64,000 nt of DNA from Nitrospira sp. (GTDB lineage: Bacteria; Nitrospirota; Nitrospiria; Nitrospirales; Nitrospiraceae), in contig JAHBWR010000002.1 of the NCBI GenBank assembly GCA_019636875.1, positions 10,277 through 74,276 of the forward strand, given 5' to 3'. The notes below the pieces were generated by a model, which saw nothing but the letters and a program-made list of their open reading frames with translations, was not told the DNA's origin and searched no databases. Shown one piece after another: positions 1,331-57,773 of this stretch (positions within the stretch are counted from its first letter, which is position 1; every line of letters begins with the position of its first letter). The position numbers were made by a program, and so were the translations under genes.

Positions 1331-2323
1331 ATGGCGAAGAATCTGACGGGCGAACAGAAAGCAGCGATTCTTCTTCGCGCCATCGGTGAGGAGGCGGCTG
1401 CCCAAGTCATGAAACAACTTGATCCAAAGGAGATCAAGAAACTTGGAGGGTTCATGAGCGGGACGGCACAGATCTCTCGTGACGAGGAGGAAGCGGTCAT
1501 ATCAGATTTTCAGGCGGTGAGTGCGGCGGGTGGGGTTCAGTTTCAGGGGAAGGAGTTCATCAAGACGGTGCTGACGAAGGCACTCGGCCCCGATAAGGCG
1601 GCACGCATCATCGAATCCATGACGCAGAAAAGCTATCCAGGGCTGGAGGCTTTGAAATGGGTGGACGTGAAAACGCTTACGCAAATGCTGAAGGTTGAGC
1701 ATGCTCAAACCGTTGCGGTGGTACTTGCTCATTTAGAGAGCGATCAGGCCAGTCAGGTGTTGGCGGCCCTTCCGGAGGACATGCGAGGAGATGTGGCCCT
1801 TCGGTTGGCGACGATGGAAGAAGTGCAGCCCGACGTCTTAGAGGAACTGAGCGAGACCTTACAGGAAACGTTAGTGGCGGGGAAAGAGATGGGATCCCAG
1901 AGCGTCGGAGGGGCGGAGGTCATCGCCAATATCTTGATGCGAATGGATAAGACGAACGAGGGCGGCATCATGACCAGAATTTCTGAGAAAAGTCAGACCC
2001 TCGCCGATAATATCCGGGCGCTTATGTTTGTGTTTGATGACATGGTGAAGGTCGATGATCGCGGGATGCAAGAATTGATGAAGGAAATCAGCAAGGAAGA
2101 TCTGCCGGTCGCACTGCGCGGCGCGAATCCAGACGTGAAAGAGAAATTTTTCAAGAATATGTCCAGCCGTGCTGCAGAAATGTTGAAGGATGACATGGAG
2201 GCACGGGGACCGGTCAAAGTGTCCGATGTCGAGAAGGCACAACAGAATATTCTTAAGGTCTGTCGCAAGCTTGAAGACGAAGGGCGCATCGTCATCGCTG
2301 GCGTGGGAGAGGAGATGTTGTAG
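1331..2323 (+). CDS. fliG: Flagellar motor switch protein FliG
   Basis: LTGEQKAAILL, EHAQTVAVVL, GGAEVIANIL, MFVFDD and NMSSRAAEMLKDDME motifs. Confidence 0.97.
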   Translation: MAKNLTGEQKAAILLRAIGEEAAAQVMKQLDPKEIKKLGGFMSGTAQISRDEEEAVISDFQAVSAAGGVQFQGKEFIKTVLTKALGPDKAARIIESMTQKSYPGLEALKWVDVKTLTQMLKVEHAQTVAVVLAHLESDQASQVLAALPEDMRGDVALRLATMEEVQPDVLEELSETLQETLVAGKEMGSQSVGGAEVIANILMRMDKTNEGGIMTRISEKSQTLADNIRALMFVFDDMVKVDDRGMQELMKEISKEDLPVALRGANPDVKEKFFKNMSSRAAEMLKDDMEARGPVKVSDVEKAQQNILKVCRKLEDEGRIVIAGVGEEML

Positions 2324-3351
2324 TGAATGGTGCGGCGATGACCGCAGGGATGTTTCGTGAGCACGAGCTCGCTCAGCTGCAGGAGACGATCCTCATCGTT
2401 GATGATGAAGAGGGGATTCGTCATCTTTTTCTTGAGCTGTTCCGACCTGAACGCGTACCGGTGCGAGTCGCCGGATCCGGCCAAGAGGCGATTGCGATGG
2501 TGAAGCAGATGGCTCCAGCGCTCTTGATAGCCGACATCCTTCTGCCGGACCAAGACGGCATTGCGGTGCTGGAGGAAGCCCAGAAGATTGATAACCGGAT
2601 CATTGGCGTGGTGATGACGGGAGCCGCAACCGTTGAACTCGCCGTCCGGGCTATGAAAGCCGGTGCCATAGATTTTCTCATCAAACCGTTTCAGACCGAA
2701 CTTGTGGTAGGGACCGTGCGGCGGTTGCTGGAACTCCATCGGTTGCGGGCCGAGAACGCGGTGTTGAAACACGCGGCTGTCCGGTCTGGTGCGGTGCGAC
2801 TGCACAGTCTTCCGTTTCAAACGTTCGGGGAGAATGGCGGAACGGTGGAGGAGGATGACGACCAGGCTGAATATGAGCGAGGTCTTGCTGATGGACAGCG
2901 CCAGATGGAGGAAGAGCGCCGGCATGATCTGGTCGTATTGATCGAAGCAGCGCGTAAATTCGATGCAGCTCGGACCAACTTGCAGCGATCAGTCGAAGAT
3001 GAGGTGATTGCACTGTCCCTTCAGATCGTGTCCAAGATTCTGCATCAGGCGGCCGAGACGAGCCGTGAGCAAATTGTCATCCAGGTGAAAGAGGCACTGG
3101 GTGTAGTCGGAGAATCGGATACTGTGGTGATACAGGTGCACCCTCTCGATGCGGCCGTGATTGAGGCGGCTCGTACAGAGCTGACCAAGCAATCAGACAC
3201 TGAGGTGAAGCTGACCATCGAACCGGTGGCCTCGCTCCCACGGGGCAGTTGTCTGGTGCATACCAGCACGCGAGTAGCGGACGCGTCTCTCGACACGCAG
3301 CTGCTCCGCTTGGGCGATAGCTTAAGGAACCGAGCGTATCGTGAGTCTTAG
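2323..3351 (+). CDS. fliH: FliH fused to an N-terminal response-regulator receiver domain
   Basis: Between fliG and fliI. N-terminal REC (ILIVDD..ADILLPDQDG..VMTG..FLIKPF); C-terminal FliH (YERGLADG, VIQVHPLD, LPRGSCLV, DASLDTQL). GTG start overlaps the fliG stop; ATG at 2338 or 2350 also possible. Confidence 0.9.
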   Translation: MNGAAMTAGMFREHELAQLQETILIVDDEEGIRHLFLELFRPERVPVRVAGSGQEAIAMVKQMAPALLIADILLPDQDGIAVLEEAQKIDNRIIGVVMTGAATVELAVRAMKAGAIDFLIKPFQTELVVGTVRRLLELHRLRAENAVLKHAAVRSGAVRLHSLPFQTFGENGGTVEEDDDQAEYERGLADGQRQMEEERRHDLVVLIEAARKFDAARTNLQRSVEDEVIALSLQIVSKILHQAAETSREQIVIQVKEALGVVGESDTVVIQVHPLDAAVIEAARTELTKQSDTEVKLTIEPVASLPRGSCLVHTSTRVADASLDTQLLRLGDSLRNRAYRES

Positions 3352-4648
3352 CAGCCTCATCGAAGATGTCGGCCCCATCGAGGTGTCGGGGAAAGTCGCG
3401 CAAGCGGTGGGAATTGTCGTGGAAGGATATGGGCCCATGACGACGGTCGGAGAGCTGTGTCGGATTACCCGGGAAGTGGGAGATGGCCCCATCGCTGCAG
3501 AGGTGGTGGGATTCCGTGGAGATCGCGTGTTGTTGATGCCACTCGGAGAGATGCAGGGCATTGGCCCAGGAAGTCGAATTATCATGACTGGTCAGGTGGC
3601 CAATTTGGCGGTTGGGCCTGGCTTGTTGGGGCGTGTGCTCGATGGGTGTGGCACTCCTCTCGACGGCAAGGACTTGCCTGCCATGCATATCAGATATCCG
3701 CTTCATGCTGAGGCGCCGAATCCGTTGCAACGAGCACGCATTCATGCGCCTCTTGATCTCGGCGTTCGTGCGATCAACGGGTTTCTGACCTGTGGTCAAG
3801 GTCAAAAAATGGGAATCTTTTCCGGTTCCGGCGTCGGCAAAAGTGTGATGTTGGGCATGATCAGTCGCTACACACGAGCGGATGTGAACGTCATTGCCTT
3901 GATCGGGGAGCGAGGACGAGAGGTGAACGAGTTCTTGGAACGAGATCTCGGCCCCGAGGCGCTCGCGCGCTCCGTGGTGGTCGTGGCGACTTCCGATCAG
4001 GCACCGCTCATCCGACTCCGGGCTGCCTTGGTGGCAACGACGATCGCCGAGTATTTTCGTGACGTGGGGAAGCACGTCTTGTTGCTGATGGATTCGTTGA
4101 CACGATTGGCCTACAGCCAGAGAGAAGTCGGTCTCGCGATCGGGGAGCCTCCAGCAACGAAAGGGTATACTCCCTCCGTCTTTGCGTTCCTCCCGAAGCT
4201 TTTGGAACGTGTGGGGACGGGACCTGGTCCAGGTACCATCACTGGATTATACACGGTGCTCGTCGACGGCGATGATTTGAATGATCCGATTGCCGATACA
4301 GTTCGGTCGATCCTAGACGGTCATATCGTCCTGTCTCGTGCCCTGGCGGCCCGCAATCATTTTCCCGCCATCGATCTACTTCAGAGCACCAGTCGTGTCA
4401 TGCGAGATATCGTCAGCCGAGCACACTATGATGCGGCGAGGCGTCTTCTAGAATTGGTCGCCCGCTATCGGCAATCTGAGGACTTGGTGCTCCTCGGAGC
4501 CTATAAACCGGGGATGAATGCCAACCTTGATCGCGCTGTTGATGCTCAGGACGCGATCAACGGGTATTTGCGACAGGATATCGATCAGGGAGCAAGCTTT
4601 GCGTCGTCAGTGGAGCAACTCGAAGCGCTGGCCAAACACAAGGCATGA
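3341..4648 (+). CDS. fliI: Flagellar export ATPase FliI
   Basis: GSGVGKS Walker A, ALIGERGREV, LLMDSLTR, GEPPATKGYTPS, DGHIVLSR. Confidence 0.97.
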   Translation: MSLSSLIEDVGPIEVSGKVAQAVGIVVEGYGPMTTVGELCRITREVGDGPIAAEVVGFRGDRVLLMPLGEMQGIGPGSRIIMTGQVANLAVGPGLLGRVLDGCGTPLDGKDLPAMHIRYPLHAEAPNPLQRARIHAPLDLGVRAINGFLTCGQGQKMGIFSGSGVGKSVMLGMISRYTRADVNVIALIGERGREVNEFLERDLGPEALARSVVVVATSDQAPLIRLRAALVATTIAEYFRDVGKHVLLLMDSLTRLAYSQREVGLAIGEPPATKGYTPSVFAFLPKLLERVGTGPGPGTITGLYTVLVDGDDLNDPIADTVRSILDGHIVLSRALAARNHFPAIDLLQSTSRVMRDIVSRAHYDAARRLLELVARYRQSEDLVLLGAYKPGMNANLDRAVDAQDAINGYLRQDIDQGASFASSVEQLEALAKHKA

Positions 4649-5070
4649 GCCTCCACTCGTTACGAAAGCTGCGTGAACAGAGAGTCGAGGCCCTGATGAT
4701 GGAATTGGGCGAGATTGCTCAATCTCTTTCGCGCAACGAAGAACGGTATCGCCAAGTTGAGGCCGAGATGCAGACGGATACCGAGCGGTATAGGAAAGAT
4801 ATGCAGCAAGGGCTCACTATCGAGAGGCTGCTGGAGTGGGAGGCTCGCTTGGGTTCGCAAGAGGCGACCTTGCACCAGGTACACCGTGACATTGAGCAAG
4901 GCGCCTTGTTGTGGAGTCGTACCAACAGCCTCCTCGTCGAAGCGAGCCAGGAGTGCAAGGTGCTTGATCGTGTCCTTGAACGGCGCGAGGCCATCCATCG
5001 AGCTGAGGTAGCCCGTCAGGAGCAGCAGGCAACGGATGAGGCTGCCAGTCGTCGTTGTTCGTCACGATGA
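4645..5070 (+). CDS. fliJ: Flagellar export protein FliJ
   Basis: 141-aa coiled coil with ATGA overlap on fliI; C-terminal EQQATDE. Confidence 0.85.
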   Translation: MSLHSLRKLREQRVEALMMELGEIAQSLSRNEERYRQVEAEMQTDTERYRKDMQQGLTIERLLEWEARLGSQEATLHQVHRDIEQGALLWSRTNSLLVEASQECKVLDRVLERREAIHRAEVARQEQQATDEAASRRCSSR

Positions 5071-5843
5071 GGGTGTGGTTCATGAACTCATCTTCTCCCG
5101 TACACAGGACAGACCGGGTTCGGTTCACTCGTATGGGACATGATGGTTCAACTGCACGAGCCAATCGCCGTTCCCTTCTTTTAAGGTTGGCTGGTGGACT
5201 CATTGTATCGACCATCCTCCTCTGGGTCATGGTGCAACTAGGACAAGCCTCTTCTGAACAGAAAACTTCCAAGGCATCCCCGACAGCATCGCCGTCGTCC
5301 TCCCAGGATGTGGTGCCGCCTGATCAACATGGGGAACAGAAAGAAATAGCTGACCAGAACGATGCCACACTCTTAGCGCCTCCTAAGAGTCAGGGGCCTG
5401 CCATCGAGGTTCCGCGCGAAGTGCTGGAGATGCTGGAACAGCGCAAACGTGATCTGGACCGACGAGAAGAAACGATTCGTGAAAAGGAGGAACGGCTCAT
5501 GATCGTGCGTACCCAGATCGAGGAGCTGTTGGAGCAGAACGAAGCATTGGAAAAAAAGATTCAAAGTGCACAAGAGAAAAAAGAAGAACAGGCCTCGGTT
5601 AAGCAGGTCAAGGTCCAGGGTGAGAAAGAACGTCAGGTACAGGAGGAACGGATCAGGCTGGCAAAAATGTACGAGTCCATGCCGTCGGAAGATGCGGCGG
5701 CTCGGCTGGAGCATATGCCGGATCGGAAGGCGGTTGAAATCCTTCGATTAGTCAAATCGAAAACCGCAGGGTTGATACTCTCCCAGGTTAAAGCAGATCG
5801 AGCGGCGAAGCTCACCGAACAGTTATTGGCACAAGTGCCATAG
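5067..5843 (+). CDS. MotE/FlbB/YlxF-like flagellar protein (TM, coiled coil, MgtE-N-like C-terminus)
   Basis: LAKMYESMPSEDAAARLE..KTAGLILSQVKADRAAKLT; typical position after fliJ; ATG at 5067 overlaps the fliJ stop. Confidence 0.75.
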   Translation: MRVWFMNSSSPVHRTDRVRFTRMGHDGSTARANRRSLLLRLAGGLIVSTILLWVMVQLGQASSEQKTSKASPTASPSSSQDVVPPDQHGEQKEIADQNDATLLAPPKSQGPAIEVPREVLEMLEQRKRDLDRREETIREKEERLMIVRTQIEELLEQNEALEKKIQSAQEKKEEQASVKQVKVQGEKERQVQEERIRLAKMYESMPSEDAAARLEHMPDRKAVEILRLVKSKTAGLILSQVKADRAAKLTEQLLAQVP

Positions 5844-6086: not shown

Positions 6087-6695
6087 ATGCATAAGGGTCG
6101 AGTGTTGCCCGTCCGCTCTCCGCAACTTGTGCTGGGTGTGGCAGCCTGTCACGTCTTCGCCTTGATTGTTGGGATAGGCGCCATTTCTCGCCCTGCACTA
6201 GCAGGACCACCTGTCCCCTTTAGCGCGAGTGGTACCATTTTGACGATTGATGCGGGGGATGTTCGCTCGGCCGGGCAGAGCGGACGATTCATCGTGAGGG
6301 ATCGACAGATTACCGGGACCCTCACAGGATCGATTGGAGGAACGGCTGGTGTCCCATTCGTCATCACCTATGATTCTAACGTGCCGCTTGCCACCCAGAC
6401 TGGGCGCATTCATGCTCGGTTGATTGCGGGCGTCTATGAAGCAAATATGACGATGGCCTCCAACGCAGGACCGACTCCGGTCGAGTGTGAGACTCCGGAT
6501 GGTGCGACGTGCATTGCGACGGGAGCTGGAAATTTCGTTCCGGGGCTTCTACTGAACGGGCGGATGAATTTCCTCAGTGGGGCGAAAGGTCAGGGCACGG
6601 TTAATGGGTGGCTGATTCCGATCCTTGACGAACAAGGGCATATCGTCAGCATTGCGGCCAGCCTTTTGAGTCTGAGTGGCCGGTGGATACCCTAA
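6087..6695 (+). CDS. Hypothetical exported beta-rich protein
   Basis: Signal-peptide-like N-terminus ending ALA-GPP; Gly/Thr-rich strands; Cys pair; purine-rich RBS (GGAAAGGGG). Confidence 0.6.
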   Translation: MHKGRVLPVRSPQLVLGVAACHVFALIVGIGAISRPALAGPPVPFSASGTILTIDAGDVRSAGQSGRFIVRDRQITGTLTGSIGGTAGVPFVITYDSNVPLATQTGRIHARLIAGVYEANMTMASNAGPTPVECETPDGATCIATGAGNFVPGLLLNGRMNFLSGAKGQGTVNGWLIPILDEQGHIVSIAASLLSLSGRWIP

Positions 6696-11867: not shown

Positions 11868-12842
11868 ATGGAAAAAATTCTTTCACAAGAAGAGATCGAT
11901 GCGCTCTTGAAAGGCGTCGTCTCCGGAGAAGTCGATACGGCTCCCAAGGAGAATGAAGCCGCGTCGAAAGGAGTATCGCAATACGATCTCTTCAACCAGG
12001 AACGGATCATCCGTGGTCGTATGCCGGGGATGGAAATGATCAACGATCGTTTTATCCGCCGTCAGTCTGTGGTCTGGACCAACATGTTGCGTGAGGCGGT
12101 CGATTTTGTGGTGGTCGGAACGCAGGTGATCAAGTTCGGCGAATTTCTTAAGAAGGTGCCGATGCCTTCGTCGTTGAACGTGTTTCATATGCCACCCCTA
12201 CGAGGCAGTGCGCTCTTCGTGATGGATGCCTTCCTGGTGTATCTCATCGTCGACTATTTCTTTGGTGGAAAAGGGCAAACACATGTGAAGCCTGAAGGGC
12301 GAGACTTTACGCCTGTTCAGTTGAGAATCATCAGGAAGTTGTTGTTGCAGGCCCTGATTGACCTGGAGAAGGCTTGGCACGCCATTGTGCCGCTGAAAGT
12401 GGAGTATTTGCGTTCTGAGAGCAATCCGCAGTTTGCGATGGTGGTCACCTCCTCGGAGATTGTCGTGGTCGTGACGTTGCAAGTCGTATTGGGTGAAACC
12501 GCACGGGAGCTGTACATCGTCTATCCCTACGCCATGCTCGAGCCGATCAAAGAAAAGTTGTATTCCGGGTTAGTGTCCGATCAGGTCGATCAGAATGGAG
12601 ACTGGAGTCAGCGGTTCCGCGAGCGACTGCAAGAATGTCCTGTGCCGATCGCGGTTCGCCTTGGCACGGCCACGGTCACGGTGAAAGATGTCATGAACTT
12701 CTCCAAGGGCGACGTGATTCTCCTCGATCAGCGTCCTGGTGATCCTCTCCACTGTTATATCGAAGGCTACCTCAAATTTCATGGCAGTCCCGGTATTTAT
12801 AAGGGCAATCATGCCTGTCGTGTGACGAAAGTGATGAATTAG
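11868..12842 (+). CDS. fliM: Motor switch protein FliM
   Basis: CheY-binding LSQEEIDALL, EGRDFT, ESNPQF, SpoA C-terminus. Confidence 0.97.
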   Translation: MEKILSQEEIDALLKGVVSGEVDTAPKENEAASKGVSQYDLFNQERIIRGRMPGMEMINDRFIRRQSVVWTNMLREAVDFVVVGTQVIKFGEFLKKVPMPSSLNVFHMPPLRGSALFVMDAFLVYLIVDYFFGGKGQTHVKPEGRDFTPVQLRIIRKLLLQALIDLEKAWHAIVPLKVEYLRSESNPQFAMVVTSSEIVVVVTLQVVLGETARELYIVYPYAMLEPIKEKLYSGLVSDQVDQNGDWSQRFRERLQECPVPIAVRLGTATVTVKDVMNFSKGDVILLDQRPGDPLHCYIEGYLKFHGSPGIYKGNHACRVTKVMN

Positions 12843-12866: not shown

Positions 12867-13235
12867 ATGGCTGAATCAGAACCCCTCATGCGTGCCGAAC
12901 CACAAACGGAAGGGAAAGCCTCACCCCAACCTGCCTCCTTTCCGCCTGTACAGGGTGGAGAGACAGGAGGGGGGCAAAAGAATATGGATTTTCTTCTCGA
13001 TATCCCCATGAGCGTGGCGGTGTACGTCGGATCTGCCAAGATGGCGATTCGTGACCTGTTGCAGCTGGCGCAAGGCTCGGTCATCGAGCTCGACAAACTG
13101 GCCGGGGAACCGATGGAGGTGATGGTCAATAACAAGCTGGTGGCTCGTGGTGAGGTCGTCGTTGTGAATGAAAAATTCGGCATTCGACTGACGGATGTGG
13201 TTAGTGCAGCAGAGCGCGTGCAACAGCTTCGTTGA
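12867..13235 (+). CDS. fliN: Motor switch protein FliN
   Basis: LLDIPMSVAV, GSVIELDKLAGEP, ARGEVVVVNEKFGIR. Confidence 0.97.
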   Translation: MAESEPLMRAEPQTEGKASPQPASFPPVQGGETGGGQKNMDFLLDIPMSVAVYVGSAKMAIRDLLQLAQGSVIELDKLAGEPMEVMVNNKLVARGEVVVVNEKFGIRLTDVVSAAERVQQLR

Positions 13236-32799: not shown

Positions 32800-35691
32800 T
32801 TACGCAGCTGCCTCACGGGTAGGCTGATAGCCTCGTCGGTAGGATTCCAACACGCGGACGAGCCGAGCGACTTCGAGCTCGAGCTGTGCGTAAACGGGCG
32901 GCGCATCGTGAAGCGCGCTGAGCCGGCCGACGGCTTCCAGACGACTGGCCGTGAGTCCGACCTCAGAAGCACACAGATTCCCGGCGGTTCCTTTGAATGT
33001 ATGGGCCGCTCGTTCGACTGCAGATGAATCGGCATCGGCCAGTGCCGTTCTGATTTCAGCCAGCATCGTCTGATGACGATCAAGGAACAGGCAGATAAGC
33101 TGAGCGAAGAGGTCGTTGTCACTCCCGATATTTTGGTACATTCTGGCGGGGTCAAAGACGCCCCGTGTCGGGTCGGTCGTCGCCTGGGCTGGTGGGCTTG
33201 TCTCGGAAGCGGTACTGCTAGGCGGTAGGATGGCCCACCGTGCAAGCGCTGCACGAAGTTCTTCCAACTTGATGGGTTTGGAAAGATAATCATCCATTCC
33301 GGCGGCCAAACAACGCTCCCGGTCTCCCTGCATGGCATTGGCGGTCACGGCAATGATCGGGATATGCGGCATGGATGATGGAGGCCCCTTCAATTCGGCA
33401 TCGCCTCCTGCCGGCGTGGTGGAAGATGCAGCGCTGGCTTCACGCTCGCGAATGTTCTTGGTCGTTTCAAACCCGTCCATGATGGGCATCTGACAGTCCA
33501 TCAAAATGGCGGTGTAATCACCCTTTTTCAACGCAGTCAATGCTTCCTGTCCGTTGTCGACGACATCAGGTTGATACCCGAGTTTCTCAACCATGCGAAC
33601 GGCGAGTTTCTGATTGACGATATTGTCTTCTACCACGAGTACGCGTCGGTGCTGGATATTTTCGGCGACCGTATGCCTGGTAACGAGTTGAGGAACCGTC
33701 GAGAGTGTCCGAGCTTCTTTCGGTTTTTGGGTATCGGCCAGACCGAGAACGGTTCGCAAACAGTCTCGTAACTCATCATGGCGAACGGGTTTCGGTAGGT
33801 ACCCCATGGCACCTGCCCGACGGGCTTCTTCGGCGTGGCCGCGTTGGAGCAGCGAGGTCATCACGACAAGGCGTATTCCAGCCCCTTCCGGATGGTACTG
33901 AATTTCTCGGGCAAGCTGGAGTCCATCCTTCCCTGGCATCACGAAATCCAAGATGGCGAAATCGTAGGGTGTACCACGCTGTGTGGCGTCGGATATTCGA
34001 CGTAAGGCCGAGTCAGCGTCTTCTGCGAGGTCGTCCACCATCCCCCAGCCGGAGACCAAGTGATGAAGGATGAGACGGTTCGATTCGTTATCATCGACGA
34101 TCAAGACACGTTTTCCGGCAAGATCTCCCATCGGAAGAATCGCACGTGGTGAGTCGGGTTGTTTGCGGAGACGTGCCGTACACCAGAAGGTGCTTCCTTG
34201 CCTTTCCGTGCTGCGGACACCGATCGTCCCTCCCATCAGTTCTACGAGTTGTTTCGAAATCGAAAGGCCAAGCCCGGTACCGCCGAACTTTCTTGTTGTG
34301 GAACTATCGGCCTGCACGAATGGACGAAAGAGTTTGGCTTGAGTGGTCGGGCTGATGCCGATCCCGCTGTCGGTGACTTCAAACCGAATGATGGCTGACT
34401 CCGGAAGATCTTCCTCGAGATAGGCCTGCAGCGTCACTTCTCCCCTGTCGGTAAATTTCACGGCATTCGCCACAAGATTGGTCAGGATCTGGCGCAATCG
34501 TCCGGGATCACCCTTGAGTCCGGTCGGGACTGCGGCGTGGACGAGCCCGGTCAGCTCAAGTCCTTTCGTCTCAGCACGTTCGGCAAACTGGGCGAGCACC
34601 TGTTCGACCGTCGTGCGGAGATTGAAGTCGAGGCACTCCAACTCCAGCTTACCTGCCTCAATCTTGCTGCATTCCAGCACGTCATTGATCAACTGCAGCA
34701 ACGCTTCACCGCATTGGCGTATGGTTTCGGCGTAAGACTGCTGCTCCGGCGTCAATGCGGTTTCCATGAGCAAGCTTGTCATGCCGATCACGCCGTTCAT
34801 CGGGGTTCTCAATTCGTGACTGACCGTTGCCAGGAACGCCGTCTTGACCCGTGCAGACTCCTTTGCCTCTTCCAGTGCTTTGTCGAGGCAGTGATTGCTG
34901 TGAAGCAGTTGGTCGGCAGACAATTTGAGCGCCTGCTGGACCTTACGGACGTTGGTCATATCCGTGGCATAGCCACGAACCACCCCATGTTGAGGAAGGG
35001 GGCAGAAGGTCCATGAAAAGCTCGCGTCCGGCAGGAGGACTTCCTCATTGTGGAGTGGGCGACCAGTCGTGAGACATTGCTTCACAATGTCTTGTAGACG
35101 GTTGGGCGCGACGTTAGGAAAGCCCTCAAGGCCATAGCCGAATCGAGAGAGGAGCGCGATCATCGCAGGATTTGCGTACAAGAGGCTGGAATGGTGATCC
35201 AATTCGATCAGAGGCGAAGGACTGTCTTCGGCGATGGCGGCTAGGCGATCACGGTCCTGTTCCAACTCTAGCTCATGAGACAGGTCTCGAATGGTGATGA
35301 GCAGCACCCTCCCGGCATTGAATGTGGTGCGGACACAGGTCCATTCTACGGGGATGCGCATCGTGCTGCTCTTGAGGAGAAGCTGCTGTGTCGAGGAAAT
35401 AGGAATGCCTGTTTTCAGCGTGTTCTGTAACTGAGAGGAGAGGCGAGTTTCACTGCATCGGGTGAGTTGTGTCCAGAACGTTGGGAACGGCAATCCTTGA
35501 GCTACGCTCGATCCTGGTCCGAGTAACCGGATGCCCTCTTGATTGATCCCCTGCACCGCGAGAGTAGGGTCAAGAATGAGGGTGGCAAAAGGAAGCCCGT
35601 CAAGGAGTTCCATCGCTACGGGGACGACTGTGTGAGCGGAGATCTTTGGAACCCGATGGCGTCTTTGTTTCCGTTCGGGTTTATTCATCAC
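32800..35691 (-). CDS. Cytoplasmic hybrid histidine kinase (PAS-like x2, HisKA, HATPase, REC, REC, Hpt)
   Basis: SHELRTPMNG H-box, NLVANAVKFT, DSGIG, GGTGLGL; two intact REC domains; Hpt AAHTFKG; no TM segment evident. Confidence 0.93.
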   Translation of the reverse strand: MMNKPERKQRRHRVPKISAHTVVPVAMELLDGLPFATLILDPTLAVQGINQEGIRLLGPGSSVAQGLPFPTFWTQLTRCSETRLSSQLQNTLKTGIPISSTQQLLLKSSTMRIPVEWTCVRTTFNAGRVLLITIRDLSHELELEQDRDRLAAIAEDSPSPLIELDHHSSLLYANPAMIALLSRFGYGLEGFPNVAPNRLQDIVKQCLTTGRPLHNEEVLLPDASFSWTFCPLPQHGVVRGYATDMTNVRKVQQALKLSADQLLHSNHCLDKALEEAKESARVKTAFLATVSHELRTPMNGVIGMTSLLMETALTPEQQSYAETIRQCGEALLQLINDVLECSKIEAGKLELECLDFNLRTTVEQVLAQFAERAETKGLELTGLVHAAVPTGLKGDPGRLRQILTNLVANAVKFTDRGEVTLQAYLEEDLPESAIIRFEVTDSGIGISPTTQAKLFRPFVQADSSTTRKFGGTGLGLSISKQLVELMGGTIGVRSTERQGSTFWCTARLRKQPDSPRAILPMGDLAGKRVLIVDDNESNRLILHHLVSGWGMVDDLAEDADSALRRISDATQRGTPYDFAILDFVMPGKDGLQLAREIQYHPEGAGIRLVVMTSLLQRGHAEEARRAGAMGYLPKPVRHDELRDCLRTVLGLADTQKPKEARTLSTVPQLVTRHTVAENIQHRRVLVVEDNIVNQKLAVRMVEKLGYQPDVVDNGQEALTALKKGDYTAILMDCQMPIMDGFETTKNIREREASAASSTTPAGGDAELKGPPSSMPHIPIIAVTANAMQGDRERCLAAGMDDYLSKPIKLEELRAALARWAILPPSSTASETSPPAQATTDPTRGVFDPARMYQNIGSDNDLFAQLICLFLDRHQTMLAEIRTALADADSSAVERAAHTFKGTAGNLCASEVGLTASRLEAVGRLSALHDAPPVYAQLELEVARLVRVLESYRRGYQPTREAAA

Positions 35692-36953
35692 GCGGCTCGT
35701 GGCAGACTGGGTTCCAGGTGCATGCCCACATTGACACGCTCGTGACTCGGGTCGAGGACGCGCAGGACGGTTCGTACGGTATGGTCGGATGACGGTGCCG
35801 CGAGATCGATCTCAAGCGGCGTGGCGTAGGACCCGCCCTGCGGGTCGGTCGTGACCTTCACAAGGGGCTTGAGCCGTTGCTGGGGATTCACGCCGACCAC
35901 AATGGCCTGTTCGCCGGTATTGAGTTTGAGCAAGCTTCCAACCGGGTAGACTCCGATACTGCGAATCATGGTCTCCACCAAGGGTTTTGGGAACTGTCCC
36001 CGCTCGCCTGCGAGAAAGAGTTGACGAACGGCATCGTGGGGGATCATCGCAGGGCGTGTTCCCCGCCGAGTGACCATTGCGTCGTACACGTCTACAATCC
36101 CGACAATCTGAGCGAGAGGGCAGATCGTGTCGGTCCCAAGACCTGCTGGAAAGCCTGTCCCGTCGGCACGTTCATGATGCTCCCGTACAATACGAAGGAC
36201 GTCCTCGTGCATCCCCGGGTGTTCGGAAAGGAGCGCCACGCCGAGTTTGCAATGTTGTTCAAGCAGGGTCTTATCCTGGCCTGTACATTCATCCCGTTTA
36301 CGAACGAGATTCCGAGGGAGACGGACATAGCCGGCATCGTGAAGCAGCGCGCCCATGCCGACCAATTCTTGCTGTGGTTGTTCCAGGCCGTTTTCAATGG
36401 CGACGATGAGAGAGAGGACACAGGTATCCAATGCGTGGGTTGTCAGAGACCGATCGAATTGTTTGATTTTCTGGATAGCGACTTGAGTGGCCATAGCCAC
36501 CCGGTCATTCAGGACATGCTCCAATACGTTCGATACGATGGCCTTTGTGGCTTCAGGACTAGGAGGCACTCCACGCTCTAGGTCATCAAAGATGCGCTCG
36601 ACCGCTTCTTGGGCTTGCGCGTACATAAGCACCGCAGACTGATTGCCAAGTACGGGCTTGCCGGTTTCGTCCATGTGTGGTGTCTGAGGAGGAAGGGGAG
36701 GGGAAGGAAGTGGAGGTGGAACCGCTGGTTGAGTGCGATCGGATGGCTCAGGCGGCATCGAAGGAAGATCGGCTCCTTTATTGGTATCGATTGTGACCAT
36801 CCGAATGCCATGCTGCTTCATGATCTCAATGGTTTGCAGGTCGTTGACCATTCGTTTATGGAAGAGGAACGGGGTCCGGTACCAAGGAACATCCATGTCA
36901 ATCACAAACATGCCGGGAACGAGTTGCTCGATCGCGATACGCTTGGTCGCCAT
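35688..36953 (-). CDS. HD-GYP domain protein with DUF3391-like N-terminus
   Basis: EQLVPGMFV..W N-terminus; LLHDAG, HHERADGTGFP, DVYDAM, GVYPVGS; GGAG RBS before ATG 36953; stop overlaps the kinase start. Confidence 0.9.
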   Translation of the reverse strand: MATKRIAIEQLVPGMFVIDMDVPWYRTPFLFHKRMVNDLQTIEIMKQHGIRMVTIDTNKGADLPSMPPEPSDRTQPAVPPPLPSPPLPPQTPHMDETGKPVLGNQSAVLMYAQAQEAVERIFDDLERGVPPSPEATKAIVSNVLEHVLNDRVAMATQVAIQKIKQFDRSLTTHALDTCVLSLIVAIENGLEQPQQELVGMGALLHDAGYVRLPRNLVRKRDECTGQDKTLLEQHCKLGVALLSEHPGMHEDVLRIVREHHERADGTGFPAGLGTDTICPLAQIVGIVDVYDAMVTRRGTRPAMIPHDAVRQLFLAGERGQFPKPLVETMIRSIGVYPVGSLLKLNTGEQAIVVGVNPQQRLKPLVKVTTDPQGGSYATPLEIDLAAPSSDHTVRTVLRVLDPSHERVNVGMHLEPSLPRAA

Positions 36954-37020
36954 AACGACTATGCTCCAGGTCAGAAGAATTGCAGGTCGGCCATGCCGAC
37001 GGAAGACAAATCTGTGAGTC

Positions 37021-37048
37021 ATATCGGTGAACTCCGCGTTGAACTTGA
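37021..37048 (-). promoter_or_regulatory. sigma28 promoter of the HD-GYP/kinase operon
   Basis: Minus strand TCAA-N16-ACCGATAT. Confidence 0.7.
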
Positions 37049-37117
37049 CGATTGTGATCGAGGGAGGGTGCGTACAGTGTCGTTGAGGTCGGTGTGACGG
37101 ATACTGTCCGTTTGTCC

Positions 37118-37145
37118 TCAAGACGAAGCGATGAGTTGCCGATAA
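37118..37145 (+). promoter_or_regulatory. sigma28 promoter of the PilZ flagellar-brake gene
   Basis: TCAA-N16-GCCGATAA. Confidence 0.78.
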
Positions 37146-37190
37146 GGTTCATCAGCGATGGTTTGTGTCGGCTGACAGACATCAGGAGTC

Positions 37191-37922
37191 ATGGGCATGA
37201 ATGAAATGATCGTGTCGGTTCCTCCCGCCGTGTCGTTTCTTTCGGTTGGGTTGCCGCTGAAAATATCGCTGACTCTGGATCAACAGAAGATGATGTATGG
37301 CTCGACCCTGTTGGGCTGGAAAGATCATGCCTGGCTCATCTGTGAATGGCCGCTGCAGCTCGGCCATGACCAACCGATCAGTGGTGGTACGCCATGTACG
37401 GTCAGCTACCTCCATGAGGGGAAACTGGTTGGATATCGCAGCGAGATACGCGATGTCCTCAATGCGCCGGTGCCGTTGCTCTTTCTGGCCTATCCGAAAA
37501 CCGTCGAAGAGATGCACATGCGCAAACATGTGCGGGTGCCGTCGAATGAGCCGATCTTACTCATGCGAACCGATCAGGGGCATCCATCCGAATCCACCGT
37601 CCCGACCAGCGATTATTTCGGTGGGTTACTGAAAGATCTCAGCGAGGGGGGATGCAGCGTCGCGTTGGTCACACGACCGGGCTGGCTGGGTCCCGGCAGT
37701 ACAGTCCGTTTGGAGTTCGAGCTGCCTGGATTGGGACACATTACGAACCTTACCGGCATCGTGAAGAACTCCGATAGACGTCATGGCAGCGAGATGATCG
37801 GCATCGAGTTCTGCTTCAACGAACTCGAGTACATCGAATACCGAGGGTGGGGCGGCTCCGTCCGAAACGCCATCGAGCAATGTGTCTTTCAGAAGGTCAG
37901 CGCTTCGTTCCTACTCCCCTAG
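37191..37922 (+). CDS. YcgR-like c-di-GMP-binding flagellar brake (PilZN-PilZ)
   Basis: RKHVR (RxxxR) and DLSEGG (DxSxxG) after a YcgR-like N-domain (LLFLAYP). Confidence 0.87.
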   Translation: MGMNEMIVSVPPAVSFLSVGLPLKISLTLDQQKMMYGSTLLGWKDHAWLICEWPLQLGHDQPISGGTPCTVSYLHEGKLVGYRSEIRDVLNAPVPLLFLAYPKTVEEMHMRKHVRVPSNEPILLMRTDQGHPSESTVPTSDYFGGLLKDLSEGGCSVALVTRPGWLGPGSTVRLEFELPGLGHITNLTGIVKNSDRRHGSEMIGIEFCFNELEYIEYRGWGGSVRNAIEQCVFQKVSASFLLP

Positions 37923-38118: not shown

Positions 38119-40974
38119 ATGCATAGTGTGGAAAAAATACGACCTATTCTTTCCGATCGAGTTGAAACAGAAGAGCCTGTTCAGGTTTTCACTCGTTCAA
38201 AGCTGGATGCTCTCCGGTTGGTGAGAGAGGCCTCGACTCTGTTTCGAGATGCCTGGATGCCATTGGAGGTATGTCTGTCTCTTCGTGATCAGACGACAAC
38301 CGAGTGTGAGGGTGAGGATCCGCTCGCGACACTGTTCCAGCGTGTGCGGGGAACCGTGGGGCGATTTCGAAATACAAAACTGCAGCAACTACTCACGTCT
38401 GAACCCGTAGATGGGTGGGCGCTGTGTGCAGAAACTCTGGATTATCTCGTAGACAGGATAGAGCACGATCGTCCAACTGCAATACTGGAATTCGGGAGCG
38501 GAACAAGTTCTCTCGCGCTGGCTTGGGCAATGACGTGCTTGCATGGGCAGTCGTCGACACCTCGTGTATTCAGCATCGATCAGTCAATGCCCCATATTGA
38601 ACAAATCCAAGGGGTGCTGCGGCGGCATCATCTTGCCGACGCCGTCCGCTTTCTCCATGCCGATCTCTCCATGCAAACCATCGGGTCGCGAGCGGTTCGC
38701 TGTTATGCCTTACCGCCTAAAACCATTGAAGAATTTCTGGGGGGAACACGGCCGGAGATGATCCTCATCGATGGACCTGCAGGGGAAAACGGGATTCGGT
38801 TCGGAACCGTCCCGCTCGTCAACAACATTGTGGCTCCTTACGCGGTGCTGTATCTCGATGATGGACTTCGCGACAGTGAACTCGATACGGCAGATCAGTG
38901 GAATCGGTTAGGCTATGTCCGATGGAAGGGAATCCGTTGGGAAGGGAAAGGTTTACTGAGTGGAAACGTACGCCCGGTCCTGCATGCACGAAGACGACGG
39001 TGGTTGGAACAGGTGGAAAGTACGATCCAATCACGGTCTTGGAGCGCGCCGTGGAGGGAGCCTACTGCCTTAGAGCAGAACGAGCCCAGCGCGAGGGTAC
39101 TATCTATGTCTTCAGGTCAGCAGCCTGTGACCGCCCATGCGGCGGCAGGCGCTGCAATAGCAGCGCGTACCAGCAAAGAATTGCCAAGGTGCTTGTTTGT
39201 GAATACCTATTATCCGGGGTTTCTGGACCAACACTATGCCGTTCATTCAGCACTCCGATCGGCGCCCTACGAAACACAGCATGAAGCTCTTCAGGCAGCC
39301 TGCTTCGGGGATAGTGATTATTATTCTGTCGGCTTGCAAGCCGCTGGATGGGTGGCGCAGGAGGTGATCGCAAATTGTGTTCCACTGCAACGGCAGTGGG
39401 CACTCGAACAGGGATTGGACTCTACGGCAACGCCGTTGCAAACGACGCTCAACCAGATCGCCAAGGTGCGACCCCATGTTCTGTATGTGCAAGACCTCAG
39501 TGTCGCGACTAAAGAATTCCTTGCTGCAGTTCGTGCATATGTCCATTTGATTGTCGGTCAGATTGCGTCGCCCATTCCGTCTCAGACACATCTGGATGGA
39601 TTCGACATCCTGATCTCCTCGTTTCCTCATTTTGTTGAGTTGTTCCGGAAACAAGGGCGTCTGTCTTACTACCAGCCGTTGGCGTTCGATCCGCGGGTAC
39701 TCATGCGATTGGGGAGTCATCAACGCCGTCATGCCTTGACGTTTGTCGGAGGCGTTTCGCCAGCCCATCAAGGGCGCTATGACTTGCTAACTGCCATGGC
39801 CAAAGCGGTCCCCATCCAGTTCTGGGGGTATGGCACGCAGGCATTACGTAAGCACGGAGTTGAAGAGAGTCGGATTCATGGTGAGGCGTGGGGCTTGGAC
39901 ATGTTCACAGTGCTCGCCGAGTCTAAGATCACTCTCAACCATCACATCGACGTCGCGCAATCGAATGCGAACAACATGCGACTGTTCGAGGCTACGGGGT
40001 GTGGCGCACTCCTTGTGACGGATTACAAAGACAATTTGAGTGATCTGTTTGATATAGGCTCCGAGCTTGTCGCATACCGGTCCGTGACGGAGTGCGCAGA
40101 CCTCATGCAGTATTACCTCACCCATCCGGATGAGGCAGCGGCCATCGCCGACCGTGGACAGGCGAGAACGCTTCGGGATCATACCTACGAAATCAGAATG
40201 CGTCAGACTGCAGAGTTGTTGTCTAGGCATTTGGAGATCAAGATCGGATCTCATCGTCTTCCGGATCCCGATCTCGGTCGGATTTCGTATGGTCGACGAG
40301 AAATCCAGTCTGATGAGGTCACGGCCGAACTTGCCCAATCCTGGCAATCAGATCGCATTCCACTGAAGCAACGAGCGTTGGTTCAGCGTGAGTTGCTCGA
40401 TATGTATCGGGGAAATCCTCCTGTCGTATTTCGGGCCCTTGCCGACGCCATCCGACCTTATGTCAGGCCGCACGTCGGCGTACTGGAGATCGGTTGTGCA
40501 AGCGGCTACTACTACGAAGTGTTGGAGTATCTGCTCAATACACGCCTTGCCTATCTTGGTGTCGATTTTTCCGATGCCATGATTCGTACTGCCCGTGCCT
40601 ACTATCCACACGCTCGGTTTGAGATTGGAGACGGCAGCGCGCTGCGGTTTCAGGATCGATCTGTTCCTATTGTTGTGTCGTCGTGTGTCTTGCTGCATGT
40701 GCGTGAGTACGCCTTGCACATTGCTGAGGCGGCGAGGGTGGCTTCAGAAATCATCGTCTTTCACCGGACACCCGTCGCACGCCAAGCGGCAACCAAACAC
40801 TTCACAAAATTCGCGTATGGGGTAGAAACCTTTGAGATTCGGTTCAACGAAACGGAATTCTTCAGGCTCTGTCGCGAGGTCGGTATGGAGTTCATCACAA
40901 TGGTGGACATTTCCAGTGATCCTACGCGGGATGAATTTGAGATGACCTATGTCTTTCGTGCACCTCAATCGTAG
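38119..40974 (+). CDS. Multidomain methyltransferase / CgeB-like glycosyltransferase / methyltransferase
   Basis: ILEFGSGTSS..LIDGP..LDD (SAM MTase); NNMRLFEATGCG..HTY (CgeB-type GT-B); VLEIGCASG..GVDFS (SAM MTase). Confidence 0.85.
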   Translation: MHSVEKIRPILSDRVETEEPVQVFTRSKLDALRLVREASTLFRDAWMPLEVCLSLRDQTTTECEGEDPLATLFQRVRGTVGRFRNTKLQQLLTSEPVDGWALCAETLDYLVDRIEHDRPTAILEFGSGTSSLALAWAMTCLHGQSSTPRVFSIDQSMPHIEQIQGVLRRHHLADAVRFLHADLSMQTIGSRAVRCYALPPKTIEEFLGGTRPEMILIDGPAGENGIRFGTVPLVNNIVAPYAVLYLDDGLRDSELDTADQWNRLGYVRWKGIRWEGKGLLSGNVRPVLHARRRRWLEQVESTIQSRSWSAPWREPTALEQNEPSARVLSMSSGQQPVTAHAAAGAAIAARTSKELPRCLFVNTYYPGFLDQHYAVHSALRSAPYETQHEALQAACFGDSDYYSVGLQAAGWVAQEVIANCVPLQRQWALEQGLDSTATPLQTTLNQIAKVRPHVLYVQDLSVATKEFLAAVRAYVHLIVGQIASPIPSQTHLDGFDILISSFPHFVELFRKQGRLSYYQPLAFDPRVLMRLGSHQRRHALTFVGGVSPAHQGRYDLLTAMAKAVPIQFWGYGTQALRKHGVEESRIHGEAWGLDMFTVLAESKITLNHHIDVAQSNANNMRLFEATGCGALLVTDYKDNLSDLFDIGSELVAYRSVTECADLMQYYLTHPDEAAAIADRGQARTLRDHTYEIRMRQTAELLSRHLEIKIGSHRLPDPDLGRISYGRREIQSDEVTAELAQSWQSDRIPLKQRALVQRELLDMYRGNPPVVFRALADAIRPYVRPHVGVLEIGCASGYYYEVLEYLLNTRLAYLGVDFSDAMIRTARAYYPHARFEIGDGSALRFQDRSVPIVVSSCVLLHVREYALHIAEAARVASEIIVFHRTPVARQAATKHFTKFAYGVETFEIRFNETEFFRLCREVGMEFITMVDISSDPTRDEFEMTYVFRAPQS

Positions 40975-41977
40975 CTCGAACTCGTTTCGTGGCGCTCAGG
41001 TTCTCATTACTGGAGGCCTAGGGTTCATCGGATCGAACTTGGCAATCAGGCTGGTTCGTGAAGGTGCGGAGGTGATAGTGGTCGACAGCATGATTCCAGA
41101 GTATGGAGGTCATCTCTGGAATATCGAACCGGTCCGAGACCAGATCAGAGTCAACATCGCCGATGTTCGCGATGAACACGCCATGAGATATCTGCTCGCT
41201 CGCAGTGAGTACTTATTCAACCTGGCCGGGCAAACAAGCCATCTTGATTCGATGGATCATCCCTATCAGGACCTGGATATCAATGCGAAGGCACAGTTAT
41301 CTCTCCTGGAATGCTGCCGGCACTACAATCGCAACATCAAAATCGTCTTTGCGGGGACACGCCAGATCTATGGGAAGCCACGCTATGTGCCGGTTGATGA
41401 ACAGCACCCGCTCGACCCGGTCGATGTTAATGGCATTAATAAATTGGCCGGCGAGTTGTATCACCAACTCTATCATCGGGTGTATGGCATCAAAACCGTC
41501 GTTCTGCGGCTGACGAATACGTATGGGCCTCGGATGCGGGTTGTCGATGCACGGCAGACATTTCTCGGTATCTGGATTCGAAATATTCTCGAGGGTCGTC
41601 CGATCGCCATTTTCGGGAGCGGTGCACAAGTGAGGGATTTCAACTATGTCGATGATGTCGTGGATGCATTGATGCTGGCCGCCCTCTCAAGCGAGAGCGC
41701 AGGAGAAACCTATAACCTTGGAGCCGAGCAGCCGATCAGCCTCAAGGAGACCGCCGAGTTATTAATACGATGTCATGGGCGTGGGACGTACCAACTAGTG
41801 CCGTTCCCTCCGGAACGGAAGTCTATCGACATTGGAGACTACTACGGCGACTTTCGAAAGATCAGCAGTCACCTGAACTGGAAACCATCCGTCTCGCTAG
41901 CTGATGGTCTCATGCAGACCCTAACCTATTATGAGAAACATGGGCACCGATATTGGCCTACAGCCGATGCCGCCTAG
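40949..41977 (+). CDS. NAD-dependent nucleotide-sugar epimerase/dehydratase (extended SDR)
   Basis: [30 protein letters not shown]; active-site motif reads NGINK. Confidence 0.9.
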
Positions 41978-43118
41978 CACTATCCTCGTCGCCGACCCTG
42001 GGGCAGGCGTACGATGTGAACGAGAGATACTGCTCTCGGCCATGGATCGTGTGTTGGGTGGCGGCCAGTATATTCTTGGCCCAGAAGTCCACTCCTTTGA
42101 ACAGGAGTGGGCGGGGTATCTTGGAGTCTCTCACTGCGTTGGGGTGGCGAATGGCACGGATGCGCTCGCTTTGGCTCTGAAGGCGACAGGGGTGCAGGCC
42201 GGGGATGAAGTCATCACGGTGTCCCATACCGCCGTGGCCACCATCGTCGCGATCGAGGCAATTGGAGCGATCCCGGTATTTGTCGATATCGATCCGACTA
42301 CGCGGTGCATGGATCCTGGTCTTCTCAAGGCGGCAATCACGTCGCGCACGCGTGCGATCGTTCCGGTGCATATGTATGGCCAGCCGGCGCCGATGAACAA
42401 CATTCTCTCTCTAGCTCGTCGATTTCACTGTTGGGTTGTCGAAGACTGTGCTCAAGCCCACGGGGCCGCGATCGGTGAGAAGAAGGTCGGAAGCTTTGGG
42501 GATGCCGCCGCATTCAGTTTCTATCCGACCAAGAACTTGGGGGCGATCGGTGATGCCGGCGCGGTGGTATGCCAGAGTCCAGTGATCGAGTCGCGTCTCC
42601 GCGCACTGCGTCAATATGGCTGGCGCGATCGGTATGTGAGTGAGGATGTGGGAACCAATTCCCGGCTGGACGAGCTCCAGGCGGCCATTCTTCGAGTGAA
42701 ACTCCGTCATCTCGACCAACGGAACCGCACGCGGAGGGCTATCGCTGAGCGGTATCGGGGTGCACTTGCGTCGACTGGTGCGGTCCCGCCACCGACCATT
42801 CCCGGCACAACTCATGCGATGCATCTGTTTGTCTTAGAAAGCGAGCAGCGAGAACGCTTGGCAACATACCTTTCTGAGGTAAATATCGCGACGGCACGGC
42901 ATTATCCAGTCCCGGTGCACCGGCAGCCCGCATATGTGGGACGAATTACTGGAGCGGATCGATTGCCAGTGACGGAGGCGCTTTACCAGCGAATCTTGAC
43001 AATCCCCTGCCACCCGGAGCTGACCGATGAGCAAGTGCAGCGGGTCTGTGATCGATTGCAGACCTGGTCCGAAGTCACGTCGTCATCGCTTCATGTATTG
43101 GAGAAGACAGCCTCATGA
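41967..43118 (+). CDS. DegT/DnrJ/EryC1/StrS PLP-dependent sugar aminotransferase
   Basis: [33 protein letters not shown]. Confidence 0.95.
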
Positions 43119-46100: not shown

Positions 46101-47746
46101 GTATCTCCACAGTCGATACCGTCAGGTATGACTGCTCGGTAATTATTCCGGTGTGGAACCGATGTGAACTGACGCGGCAATGTCTGGAGGCTCTGGTTAA
46201 GACGACCGATGACGTGTCATGGGAACTGATTGTGGTCGATAATCATTCGACGGACGAAACGGCGTCATTCCTTTGCAGTCTCGGAGGGGATGTTCAGATT
46301 ATCACCAACCAGGACAATCTGGGATTCGCTAAAGCCTGTAACCAAGGCGCGCGGGCGGCGCGCGGTAAGTATCTTGTCTTCTTGAATAACGATACGGTTC
46401 CGCAGCCTGGTTGGCTGAGTGCGCTGGTAGCGGAAGTAGACACACACCCGGAGGTTGGCGTTGTCGGTAGCAGACTGCTCTACCCTAATGGGACAATTCA
46501 ACATGCCGGCGTAGTCCGGGACTGCCAACATCGCCTGCCATACCACATCTACAAATCTTTTGCTGGCGACCATCCGGCCGTCAACCTACGACGTGAATTC
46601 CAAATTGTGACGGCTGCATGTCTCTTAATCCGTCGGTCGTTGTTTGAGGCGGTTAGTGGATTCGATGAGGGGTATATCAATGGTTTTGAAGATGCGGATC
46701 TTTGCCTAAAAGTAAGAGAACACGGATATCTGATTGTCTATCAGCCACGGAGCGTCGTTGTTCATCTCGAAAGCCAGACTCCTGAACGGAAGGGACATGA
46801 GCATTCCAATGCCGCTCGGTTCTTAGACCGATGGGGGGGGCAATGGTGGGCAGCGGACGAAGATCGGCAGTTCCACATCGATGGCTATAAACTGAAACGT
46901 ATTTTCCGTGATGGGAGCCTGGGAGGGGATATTCACCTGATCGGTGACATTAAGGATCGTGTCTCATGGTCGCATGTGGCGGCTGCACAAACCGCTGCGC
47001 TGAAAAAAGACTGGCTATCTGTGCGGCGCGAATTGGCCTTGGTCGATGACTGGCCACAGGACCTGTACGTCTTGTCCTGGGGGGCGATGGTGGCTGAGCG
47101 GCTGGACGAGTTAGCCTTACAGGTGAAGTTTCTCGACCGTTACCTGGAATTGCAGGATGATCTGCCGATGCGTCTTCAGGTCATCCATACGTTTCTGGAA
47201 CAACAGGATCTTGGAGCCGCTGACCGACATCTACAGAAGTTGTTGAGTGTGAGCCCCAATCACGCCGAAGGTCTGTTGCTAAAGGGGATCCTCGGCATGC
47301 AGCGCGAACAGTACGAGCAAGCCGAAGCAGCATTCGATTCGGCTATGCGTGCTGGGGCAGACAGGAAGAAATGTTTGATGGGAATGGGGATGGCTGCGAT
47401 GGGTAGGTCCTACACGCAAGGGGCGTGGGAGCGATTTGTTCGGATCCTAGCAGAGTATCCTGATGATGCTGAAGCGATTCATTGGTTGCTGCGAGCGGGG
47501 ACTGCGCAAAATCGTTGGCGGGAGCTGAGCGGACAGCTGCACGGCTATGTCGAGAGAAATCCAGAAGACGTCGCCATGCGATTTGCCTTTGCCAGCGTGT
47601 TGTTGCGTGGGGAGCAGATTGAGGCAGCCCGTCGGGAGTATGACACCCTTCGACAGATTGCGCCGAGCTATGACGGGTTGGATGAACTTGGTCGAGCCAT
47701 CACAGGGAGAGAAGCAGCGCTCGCACTCGAGGCCGCTTCGTCGTAG
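43115..47746 (+). CDS. Giant multidomain glycosyltransferase (GT-A, methyltransferase, GT2, GT2, TPR)
   Basis: [56 protein letters not shown]; helical TPR-like C-terminus. Confidence 0.87.
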
Positions 47747-47750
47747 CCGG

Positions 47751-48938: not shown

Positions 48939-48947
48939 GAGGATGTA

Positions 48948-57754: not shown

Positions 57755-57773
57755 CGCCAATCGGAAGGTACCC

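Follow-up and report, generated by a model that had tools for sequence, protein, structure and literature searches.

The export of flagellar and injectisome proteins by type III systems is regulated through transcription, chaperones, substrate-specificity switching and effectors of cyclic di-GMP (c-di-GMP), and we know of no case in which a two-component receiver forms part of the export ATPase complex. In transcriptional activators of the NtrC1/DctD type, which carry such receivers, phosphorylation re-packs the receiver/linker dimer. In Salmonella FliH, Trp7 and Trp10 bind the V111-V113 patch of FliN, and FlhA (PMC4185386). The locus described here joins elements of these two systems in one polypeptide. 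It lies in a 64,000-nucleotide stretch of a Nitrospira sp. assembly (GCA_019636875.1, contig JAHBWR010000002.1, positions 10,277 to 74,276 of the forward strand), referred to below as the window and used for all coordinates unless another contig is named. At positions 2323-3351 of its plus strand, between fliG and fliI, a single open reading frame of 342 residues encodes a receiver (REC) domain followed by FliH. This gene, REC-fliH, is a genuine fusion that arose a single time and has been kept by selection, in which an NtrC-class receiver with its linker is joined to the genome's sole FliH.

The frame runs without stop or frameshift from a GTG start, which overlaps the TAG stop of fliG by 1 nucleotide, to a 3' end that overlaps the start of fliI by 11 nucleotides. 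A Shine-Dalgarno-like GGGAGAGGAG, read directly from the plus strand, stands upstream of the GTG at 2305-2314, and homologues begin with Met at the position aligned with that GTG. The initial annotation, made from the letters alone, had described, in the fliG-fliI interval, one frame with an intact receiver at the front, followed by a helix of NtrC type and the body of a FliH, and every residue that it named is where it had placed it: the active-site set D27, D28, D71, T99 and K121-P122 is complete in this genome, the helix LELHRLRAENAVLK occupies residues 136-149, and LHSLPFQTF residues 160-168. The predicted phospho-acceptor, to judge by residue conservation in homologues, is D71 (codon 2533-2535, plus strand). 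The profile scan suggested at the same time places both domains above their Pfam cut-offs: Response_reg (PF00072) scores 77.3 bits over residues 23-129 (cut-off 30.2; E 1.3e-21) and FliH (PF02108) 62.1 bits over residues 208-329 (cut-off 24.1; E 6.4e-17). Among NCBIfam models the N-terminal part matches the NtrX, AtoC, FixJ and NtrC receivers, and residues 177-337 match FliH and YscL; the FliH equivalog models match below their whole-protein cut-offs (61.7 against 180 bits). Neither the sigma-54 AAA+ domain (PF00158) nor HTH_8 was found in the protein by Pfam and NCBIfam scans, and REC-FliH, having of that family only the receiver and the linker, is not an NtrC-family sigma-54 activator. By profile search and tblastn it is the only FliH in the 3.55-Mb, 84% complete assembly; an exact look-up found no record of this precise protein sequence.

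An AlphaFold2 model built from 55 homologues (mean predicted local distance difference test, pLDDT, 79) divides the protein into five parts. The receiver (residues 23-124; 2389-2694, plus strand), delimited by Pfam PF00072, AlphaFold2 and Foldseek, is a (beta-alpha)5 fold of five strands and five helices with pLDDT near 90. Helix alpha5 continues unbroken up to residue 154 as an NtrC/DctD-type linker helix, HRLRAENAVLKHAAV (residues 125-154; 2695-2784, plus strand), recognised from the predicted helix and from alignments with the activator discussed below and with Protein Data Bank (PDB) entries. A flexible segment (155-178) follows, disordered in the model with pLDDT below 50 between residues 156 and 176, which carries LPFQTF (residues 163-168; 2809-2826, plus strand), a candidate FliN/FlhA docking motif by its low pLDDT and motif likeness. 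Next comes a 68-residue helix (179-246; 2857-3060, plus strand; pLDDT 77-90), the putative FliH dimerisation coiled coil, and then an alpha/beta C-terminal globular domain (249-341; 3067-3345, plus strand) identified by Pfam PF02108, NCBIfam and AlphaFold2, which in characterised FliH binds FliI. The model thus predicts both the long dimerisation helix and the globular FliI-binding-type domain of a FliH. Foldseek aligns the receiver with that of NtrX (4d6y) at a TM-score of 0.90 and 36% identity and with many solved receivers at TM-scores of 0.88-0.94. Its match to NtrC1 covers 139-145 columns and includes the linker helix, through which the sequence matches to NtrC1 and DctD in the PDB also extend.

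The same architecture was found in 38 independent species-representative genomes. A word-indexed search returned 846 homologues. Both domains are present in each of the best 120, whose named members are without exception Nitrospira; one homologue from Candidatus N. nitrificans is publicly annotated as 'putative FliH with response regulator receiver domain (Modular protein)'. Exhaustive comparison with 1.84 billion representatives added about a dozen clusters with full-length matches at 28-45% identity, their named members being Nitrospira, Nitrospiraceae or Nitrospirota, and the four receiver-FliH clusters of the ESM Atlas are all from Nitrospirota. No fusion from outside that phylum was found among the best 150 of the 1.84 billion representatives or in the ESM Atlas clusters, where divergent independent fusions could rank below many receiver-only matches. 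Within the phylum, a FliH body is present in 147 of 401 species genomes, and reading frames were checked with a receiver query. Seven genera of the window's family have a fused FliH (g1, g2, g4, g5, g6, g8 and g12). Four frame-checked genomes from other families have plain FliH, and in the remaining genomes of those families the frame that contains the match is mostly open over 200-280 residues, which leaves no room for a receiver. In the receiver tree all FliH receivers form one clade (support 96/93), from which a single origin of the fusion follows; it has been maintained by purifying selection in most genera of Nitrospiraceae. The initial annotation had allowed that the fusion might be missing from relatives or be an assembly artefact, and its recurrence in so many independent genomes excludes both.

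Among 55 aligned homologues D71 is kept in 54, K121 in 54 and T99 in 52, and within the genus P122 and F118 (the aromatic switch position) are invariant. The three residues D71, T99 and K121 are all retained in 37 of the 38 species representatives, so that the conservation of D71 asked about at the outset is borne out. Over 283 pairs the receiver has a median ratio of nonsynonymous to synonymous substitution (dN/dS) of 0.135; the corresponding medians are 0.175 in the C-terminal domain, 0.198 in the coil and 0.214 in the linker. In nearly every comparison, identity is higher over the receiver than over the FliH body. The receiver is therefore under purifying selection at least as strong as that on the FliH parts, and the phospho-switch residues are intact in this genome and in most of its relatives.

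It could be argued that the fusion is only apparent, a receiver-less FliH being made from an internal start or the frame being a product of assembly or annotation. One species has a natural FliH without a receiver, starting just before ILKHAAV, which shows that such a protein can function. However, the frame is open in all 38 genomes, the 120 best of the 846 homologues have both domains, the Shine-Dalgarno element precedes the GTG at 2323 and no start is conserved in the linker, and it is evident from the low dN/dS that the receiver is translated. An internal start was considered and rejected: across species no conserved Met or start codon was found in the linker, and the codon of V147 is mostly GTC, varying among GTC, GTG, GTT and ATC. 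RNA-library contigs of at least 99% identity, assembled from four wastewater metatranscriptome runs of one study (X1-X4), cover parts of the gene, 2526-3293 running from inside the receiver into the FliH body and 2243-2447 from fliG into the start. These contigs hold at most 0.39 of the sampled words, may include DNA and cannot show starts, strand or level, and gaps in them prove nothing. We consider an apparent fusion very improbable. As a separate observation, contigs at least 99% identical to window positions 1400-4400 occur in wastewater metatranscriptomes, which fits a Nitrospira of wastewater plants.

Two observations identify the source of the receiver. First, a tree with 22 receivers from this genome makes the clade of FliH receivers sister (support 97/99) to that of a sigma-54 flagellar activator whose gene lies in the same cluster, 10 kb upstream on the window's own contig (C112, 2095-3552); the two receivers are 43% identical. 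Secondly, the two proteins have in common the linker motif HRLRxENxxL+, represented by FHRLRQENHLLRRAV in the activator and by LHRLRAENAVLKHAAV in FliH. Since the linker aligns with the REC-AAA+ linker of the activator, the label of an NtrC-type helix is right and the junction with FliH lies near residue 155. The activator is present and syntenic also in the genera whose FliH is unfused, and therefore predates the fusion. Receiver and linker were copied from the neighbouring activator onto FliH. An alternative descent of the ENxVLK stretch, as the old N-terminus of FliH, was examined and set aside: unfused sisters start with V(S/I)AQDFA(L/R)ILK, at a similar spacing to YERG, but the activator linker FHRLRQENHLLRRAV is far closer, and an origin from the NtrC linker is more likely. 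Upstream of fliF on the same contig the gene order is REC-AAA+-HTH sigma-54 activator, TPR protein, PAS-HisKA-HATPase kinase, second REC-sigma-54 activator, flgB, flgC and fliE, and it is identical in Ca. N. nitrificans. The TPR protein (726 residues; L004 3671-5851, contig C112, upstream of the window) overlaps the start of the PAS histidine kinase and forms one operon with the second sigma-54 activator, an arrangement common to Ca. N. nitrificans.

An intact receiver on FliH suggests that a kinase signal acts directly on the machine that builds the flagellum. We hold it somewhat better than an even bet that REC-FliH is a phospho-regulated FliH, its N-terminus extended by a phosphorylatable receiver. 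In the mechanism that we propose, a kinase would phosphorylate D71, the candidates being the kinase of the paralogous activator, the upstream PAS histidine kinase or the hybrid kinase-Hpt protein of the cluster. Phosphorylation would then rearrange the receiver/linker dimer, as in DctD and NtrC1; because FliH is dimeric in action and its docking segment follows the linker directly, this rearrangement could reach the two docking peptides of the dimer and expose or withdraw them. Such a change might control the recruitment of FliH2-FliI to FliN/FliM and FlhA. Flagellar export would thereby come under two-component control at the post-translational level, possibly through the signal that also drives sigma-54-dependent flagellar transcription. 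That phosphorylation of the receiver switches the docking of FliH2-FliI to the C-ring and FlhA, by a kinase that could be shared with or descended from that of the activator, and so turns export on and off in step with flagellar transcription, is a more tentative proposal, to which we give rather less than an even chance.

E. coli FliH begins MSDNLPWKTW, and LPFQTF resembles its LPWKTW at the level of the motif; F168 is invariant in the genus, and Nitrospira FliN retains an invariant VVVV. The likeness does not extend to a significant alignment: BLASTP of residues 150-342 against E. coli FliH gives an E value of 0.96, and the aligned motif SLPFQTF/NLPWKTW one of 17. The initial annotation had called LHSLPFQTF a possible remnant of the original docking peptide. 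The assignment to docking gains from the resemblance and from its presence in the receiver-less variant, but the word remnant is not apt, and LPFQTF is better called a putative retained docking segment. A complex prediction of the kind also proposed there, with the FliM C-terminal domain, FliN and residues 138-186, scored 0.53, the best of three controls reaching 0.01. Of 80 solved complexes 58 attained the mark applied, as did 2 of 110 mismatched pairs; with scores of 0.60 or under, only 7 of those 80 complexes did so, together with both of the mismatches that passed. Runs agreed in at least 90% of contacts and partner pLDDT was at least 57. The result should be interpreted with some caution, as weak support, since a like complex has already been solved and the pass may be memory.

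The upstream PAS kinase is paired with the second sigma-54 activator. The hybrid histidine kinase of the flagellar cluster (32800-35691, minus strand; 963 residues, PAS-HisKA-HATPase-REC-REC-Hpt by Pfam) is one candidate phosphodonor. A full-length orthologue lies in the flagellar region of all nine fused genomes tested (six genera), some 27-33 kb from fliH in the seven genomes where the two share a contig and 116 kb off in one. It is also present in the receiver-less species (G092), and it was not found in the three unfused genera. Co-occurrence was rejected as a means of naming this kinase the cognate partner: the pattern follows phylogeny and is not decisive, and one fused genus is without the orthologue. 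None of the two activators and two kinases reached an NCBIfam equivalog cut-off.

Several observations weigh against a phospho-regulated FliH. Three genera of the same family (g3, g9 and g10) have plain FliH of 200-260 residues, and in the window's own genus G092 has a 215-residue FliH without a receiver (L027, positions 1495-2142, minus strand, of G092:C3:60661-64260), whose start follows immediately on the fliG stop codon and whose neighbours fliG and fliI are intact. This FliH keeps the linker end and the docking motif, ILKHAAV...VPLQKF, and is nested deep within the fused clade in the tree of FliH bodies, so that it represents a secondary, clean deletion of the receiver. Together with the three unfused genera it implies that the receiver is dispensable for basic FliH function; the receiver would thus be a regulatory add-on and no requirement for FliH. 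Moreover, the Mg-binding acidic residue D28 is replaced by A, H or G in 8 of the 38 species representatives, including proteins of the Ca. N. nitrificans type, two homologues also have T99A and G100E, and one lineage (G136, locus L036, with protein P0183) keeps the receiver in frame after losing every phospho-residue. The inter-domain arrangement in the AlphaFold2 model is not confident (predicted template-modelling score 0.42), and the complex test gave weak support and returned no contacts. With respect to signalling, no orthologue of the hybrid kinase was found in fused genus g4, where G083 has an intact fused receiver, and the receivers of FliH (G-I-L-E-L) and activator (A-L-I-E-T) carry different residues at those positions of alpha1 on which kinase specificity usually depends. 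The degenerate lineage deserves a note of its own: G136 L036 (G136:C1:3062100-3064200) and P0183 have lost all the phospho-residues (V, E, G at D71, V at T99, V at K121), and L035, from another species of G136's genus, retains the phospho-residues.

Some of these points would be expected if the receiver were a structural module that acts independently of phosphorylation, serving at the flagellar base as an additional domain for dimerisation or docking and comparable to FleQ-type or aspartate-less receivers, its residues being kept for the fold or for binding of a ligand or partner. The replacements of D28 and the degenerate receivers of G136 and P0183, still in frame, fit that account, as do the lack of an adjacent cognate kinase gene and the fact that REC plus linker of the NtrC1/DctD type, to which the PDB matches point, is itself a dimerisation device. 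Against it, 37 of 38 species retain D71, T99, K121-P122 and F118 as a set, the pattern typical of a functioning phospho-switch, when aspartate-less receivers normally lose these residues; the receiver, furthermore, has the lowest dN/dS of the protein, and the degenerate case is a single lineage. We therefore regard a purely structural role as unlikely, at roughly one chance among a few.

A further possibility concerns the kinase more than FliH. In Campylobacter and Vibrio the kinases FlgS and FlrB respond to formation of the export apparatus and the MS ring. By analogy, the FliH receiver might be a phosphate sink or reporter, drawing on one kinase in competition with the sigma-54 activator; FliH, free or docked, would report the assembly state of the export apparatus to gene expression, and the activity of FliH itself would not be the target. 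The sister relationship of the two receivers and their common linker would suit this arrangement, as would their position in one cluster with the PAS kinase and the second activator between them. The shared kinase is hypothetical, however, and the unlike alpha1 positions speak against it; with the receiver directly against the FliH docking segment, control of FliH itself is the simpler proposition. We judge a sink or reporter improbable, and retain the phospho-regulated FliH as our working account.

The surrounding genes are those of a flagellar cluster. The Pfam-identified fliF (1-1323) and fliG (1331-2323, plus strand; FliG_N, FliG_M and FliG_C) precede REC-fliH, and fliI, the flagellar export ATPase (3341-4648, plus strand; ATP-synt_ab and T3SS_ATPase_C), and fliJ (4645-5070; Pfam) follow it. 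Two open reading frames after fliJ, at 5055-5843 (262 residues, with a weak MgtE_N-like match) and 6087-6695 (202 residues, without a Pfam family), are conserved in position in Ca. N. nitrificans. The C-ring gene fliM (11868-12842, plus strand; FliM and FliMN_C by Pfam) has a C-terminal SPOA domain at residues 252-323. The C-ring protein FliN, encoded at 12867-13235 on the plus strand, is the expected docking partner of the FliH N-terminal segment, and its invariant VVVV patch lies at residues 97-100. At 32800-37922 the minus strand encodes the hybrid kinase and an HD-GYP-type protein that includes DUF3391, and a YcgR-like PilZNR-PilZ protein lies next to them; together these genes resemble a module for c-di-GMP signalling and phosphorelay that is connected to the motor. 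A block of about 14 kb (38119-52444) separates the motor genes from the flagellin gene (53192-54019) and is probably an island for flagellin glycosylation. Its genes encode glycosyltransferases, methyltransferase domains, an epimerase/dehydratase, a DegT-type aminotransferase and a frame of 1543 residues (43115-47746). Positions 56633-58382, which follow immediately on fliD and fliS, encode a GGDEF diguanylate cyclase and an overlapping PilZ-domain protein.

In soils, waters and wastewater plants Nitrospira are the main nitrite oxidisers (and complete ammonia oxidisers), and a receiver on FliH would give them a direct, fast and reversible input to flagellar assembly. The receiver-less species, the lineage with a degenerate receiver and the unfused sister genera offer natural controls for the relation of FliH docking to export. 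The fusion also illustrates how a copy of a regulatory module can pass from a transcription factor to the machine encoded by the genes under that factor's control. The architecture is already visible in public annotation and is a combination of known kinds; full-text searches of the literature found no paper describing a receiver-FliH fusion.

REC-FliH is like the canonical FliH/SctL of E. coli and Salmonella in the position of its gene between fliG and fliI, the long coiled-coil helix, the C-terminal domain and the LP-aromatic-x-T-aromatic motif, whereas it has about 155 additional N-terminal residues, the receiver and linker helix, so that the putative docking motif is internal (163-168) and not at the extreme N-terminus. 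With activators of the NtrC1/DctD/NtrX type (PDB 1ny5, 1zy2, 1qkk and 4d6y) it has in common the REC fold and sequence class, at 30-36% identity and TM-scores of about 0.9 through the linker helix, and with the cluster's own sigma-54 activator the ENxxL+ linker motif; unlike them it is without AAA+ or HTH domains, and its linker leads to FliH, the output being a secretion-system adaptor and not transcription. RssB (PDB 3f7a), a receiver-controlled adaptor that delivers RpoS to the ClpXP ATPase and whose receiver is among the Foldseek matches (137 columns), likewise fuses a receiver to an adaptor serving an ATPase machine, but output domain, machine and client are unrelated and the parallel is one of analogy only. 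CheY, which acts on FliM/FliN, may offer an analogy for a receiver working at the flagellar C-ring; CheY, however, is a free single domain that steers the direction of rotation, whereas the receiver of FliH is of the NtrC class, not that of CheY, and a covalent part of the export adaptor.

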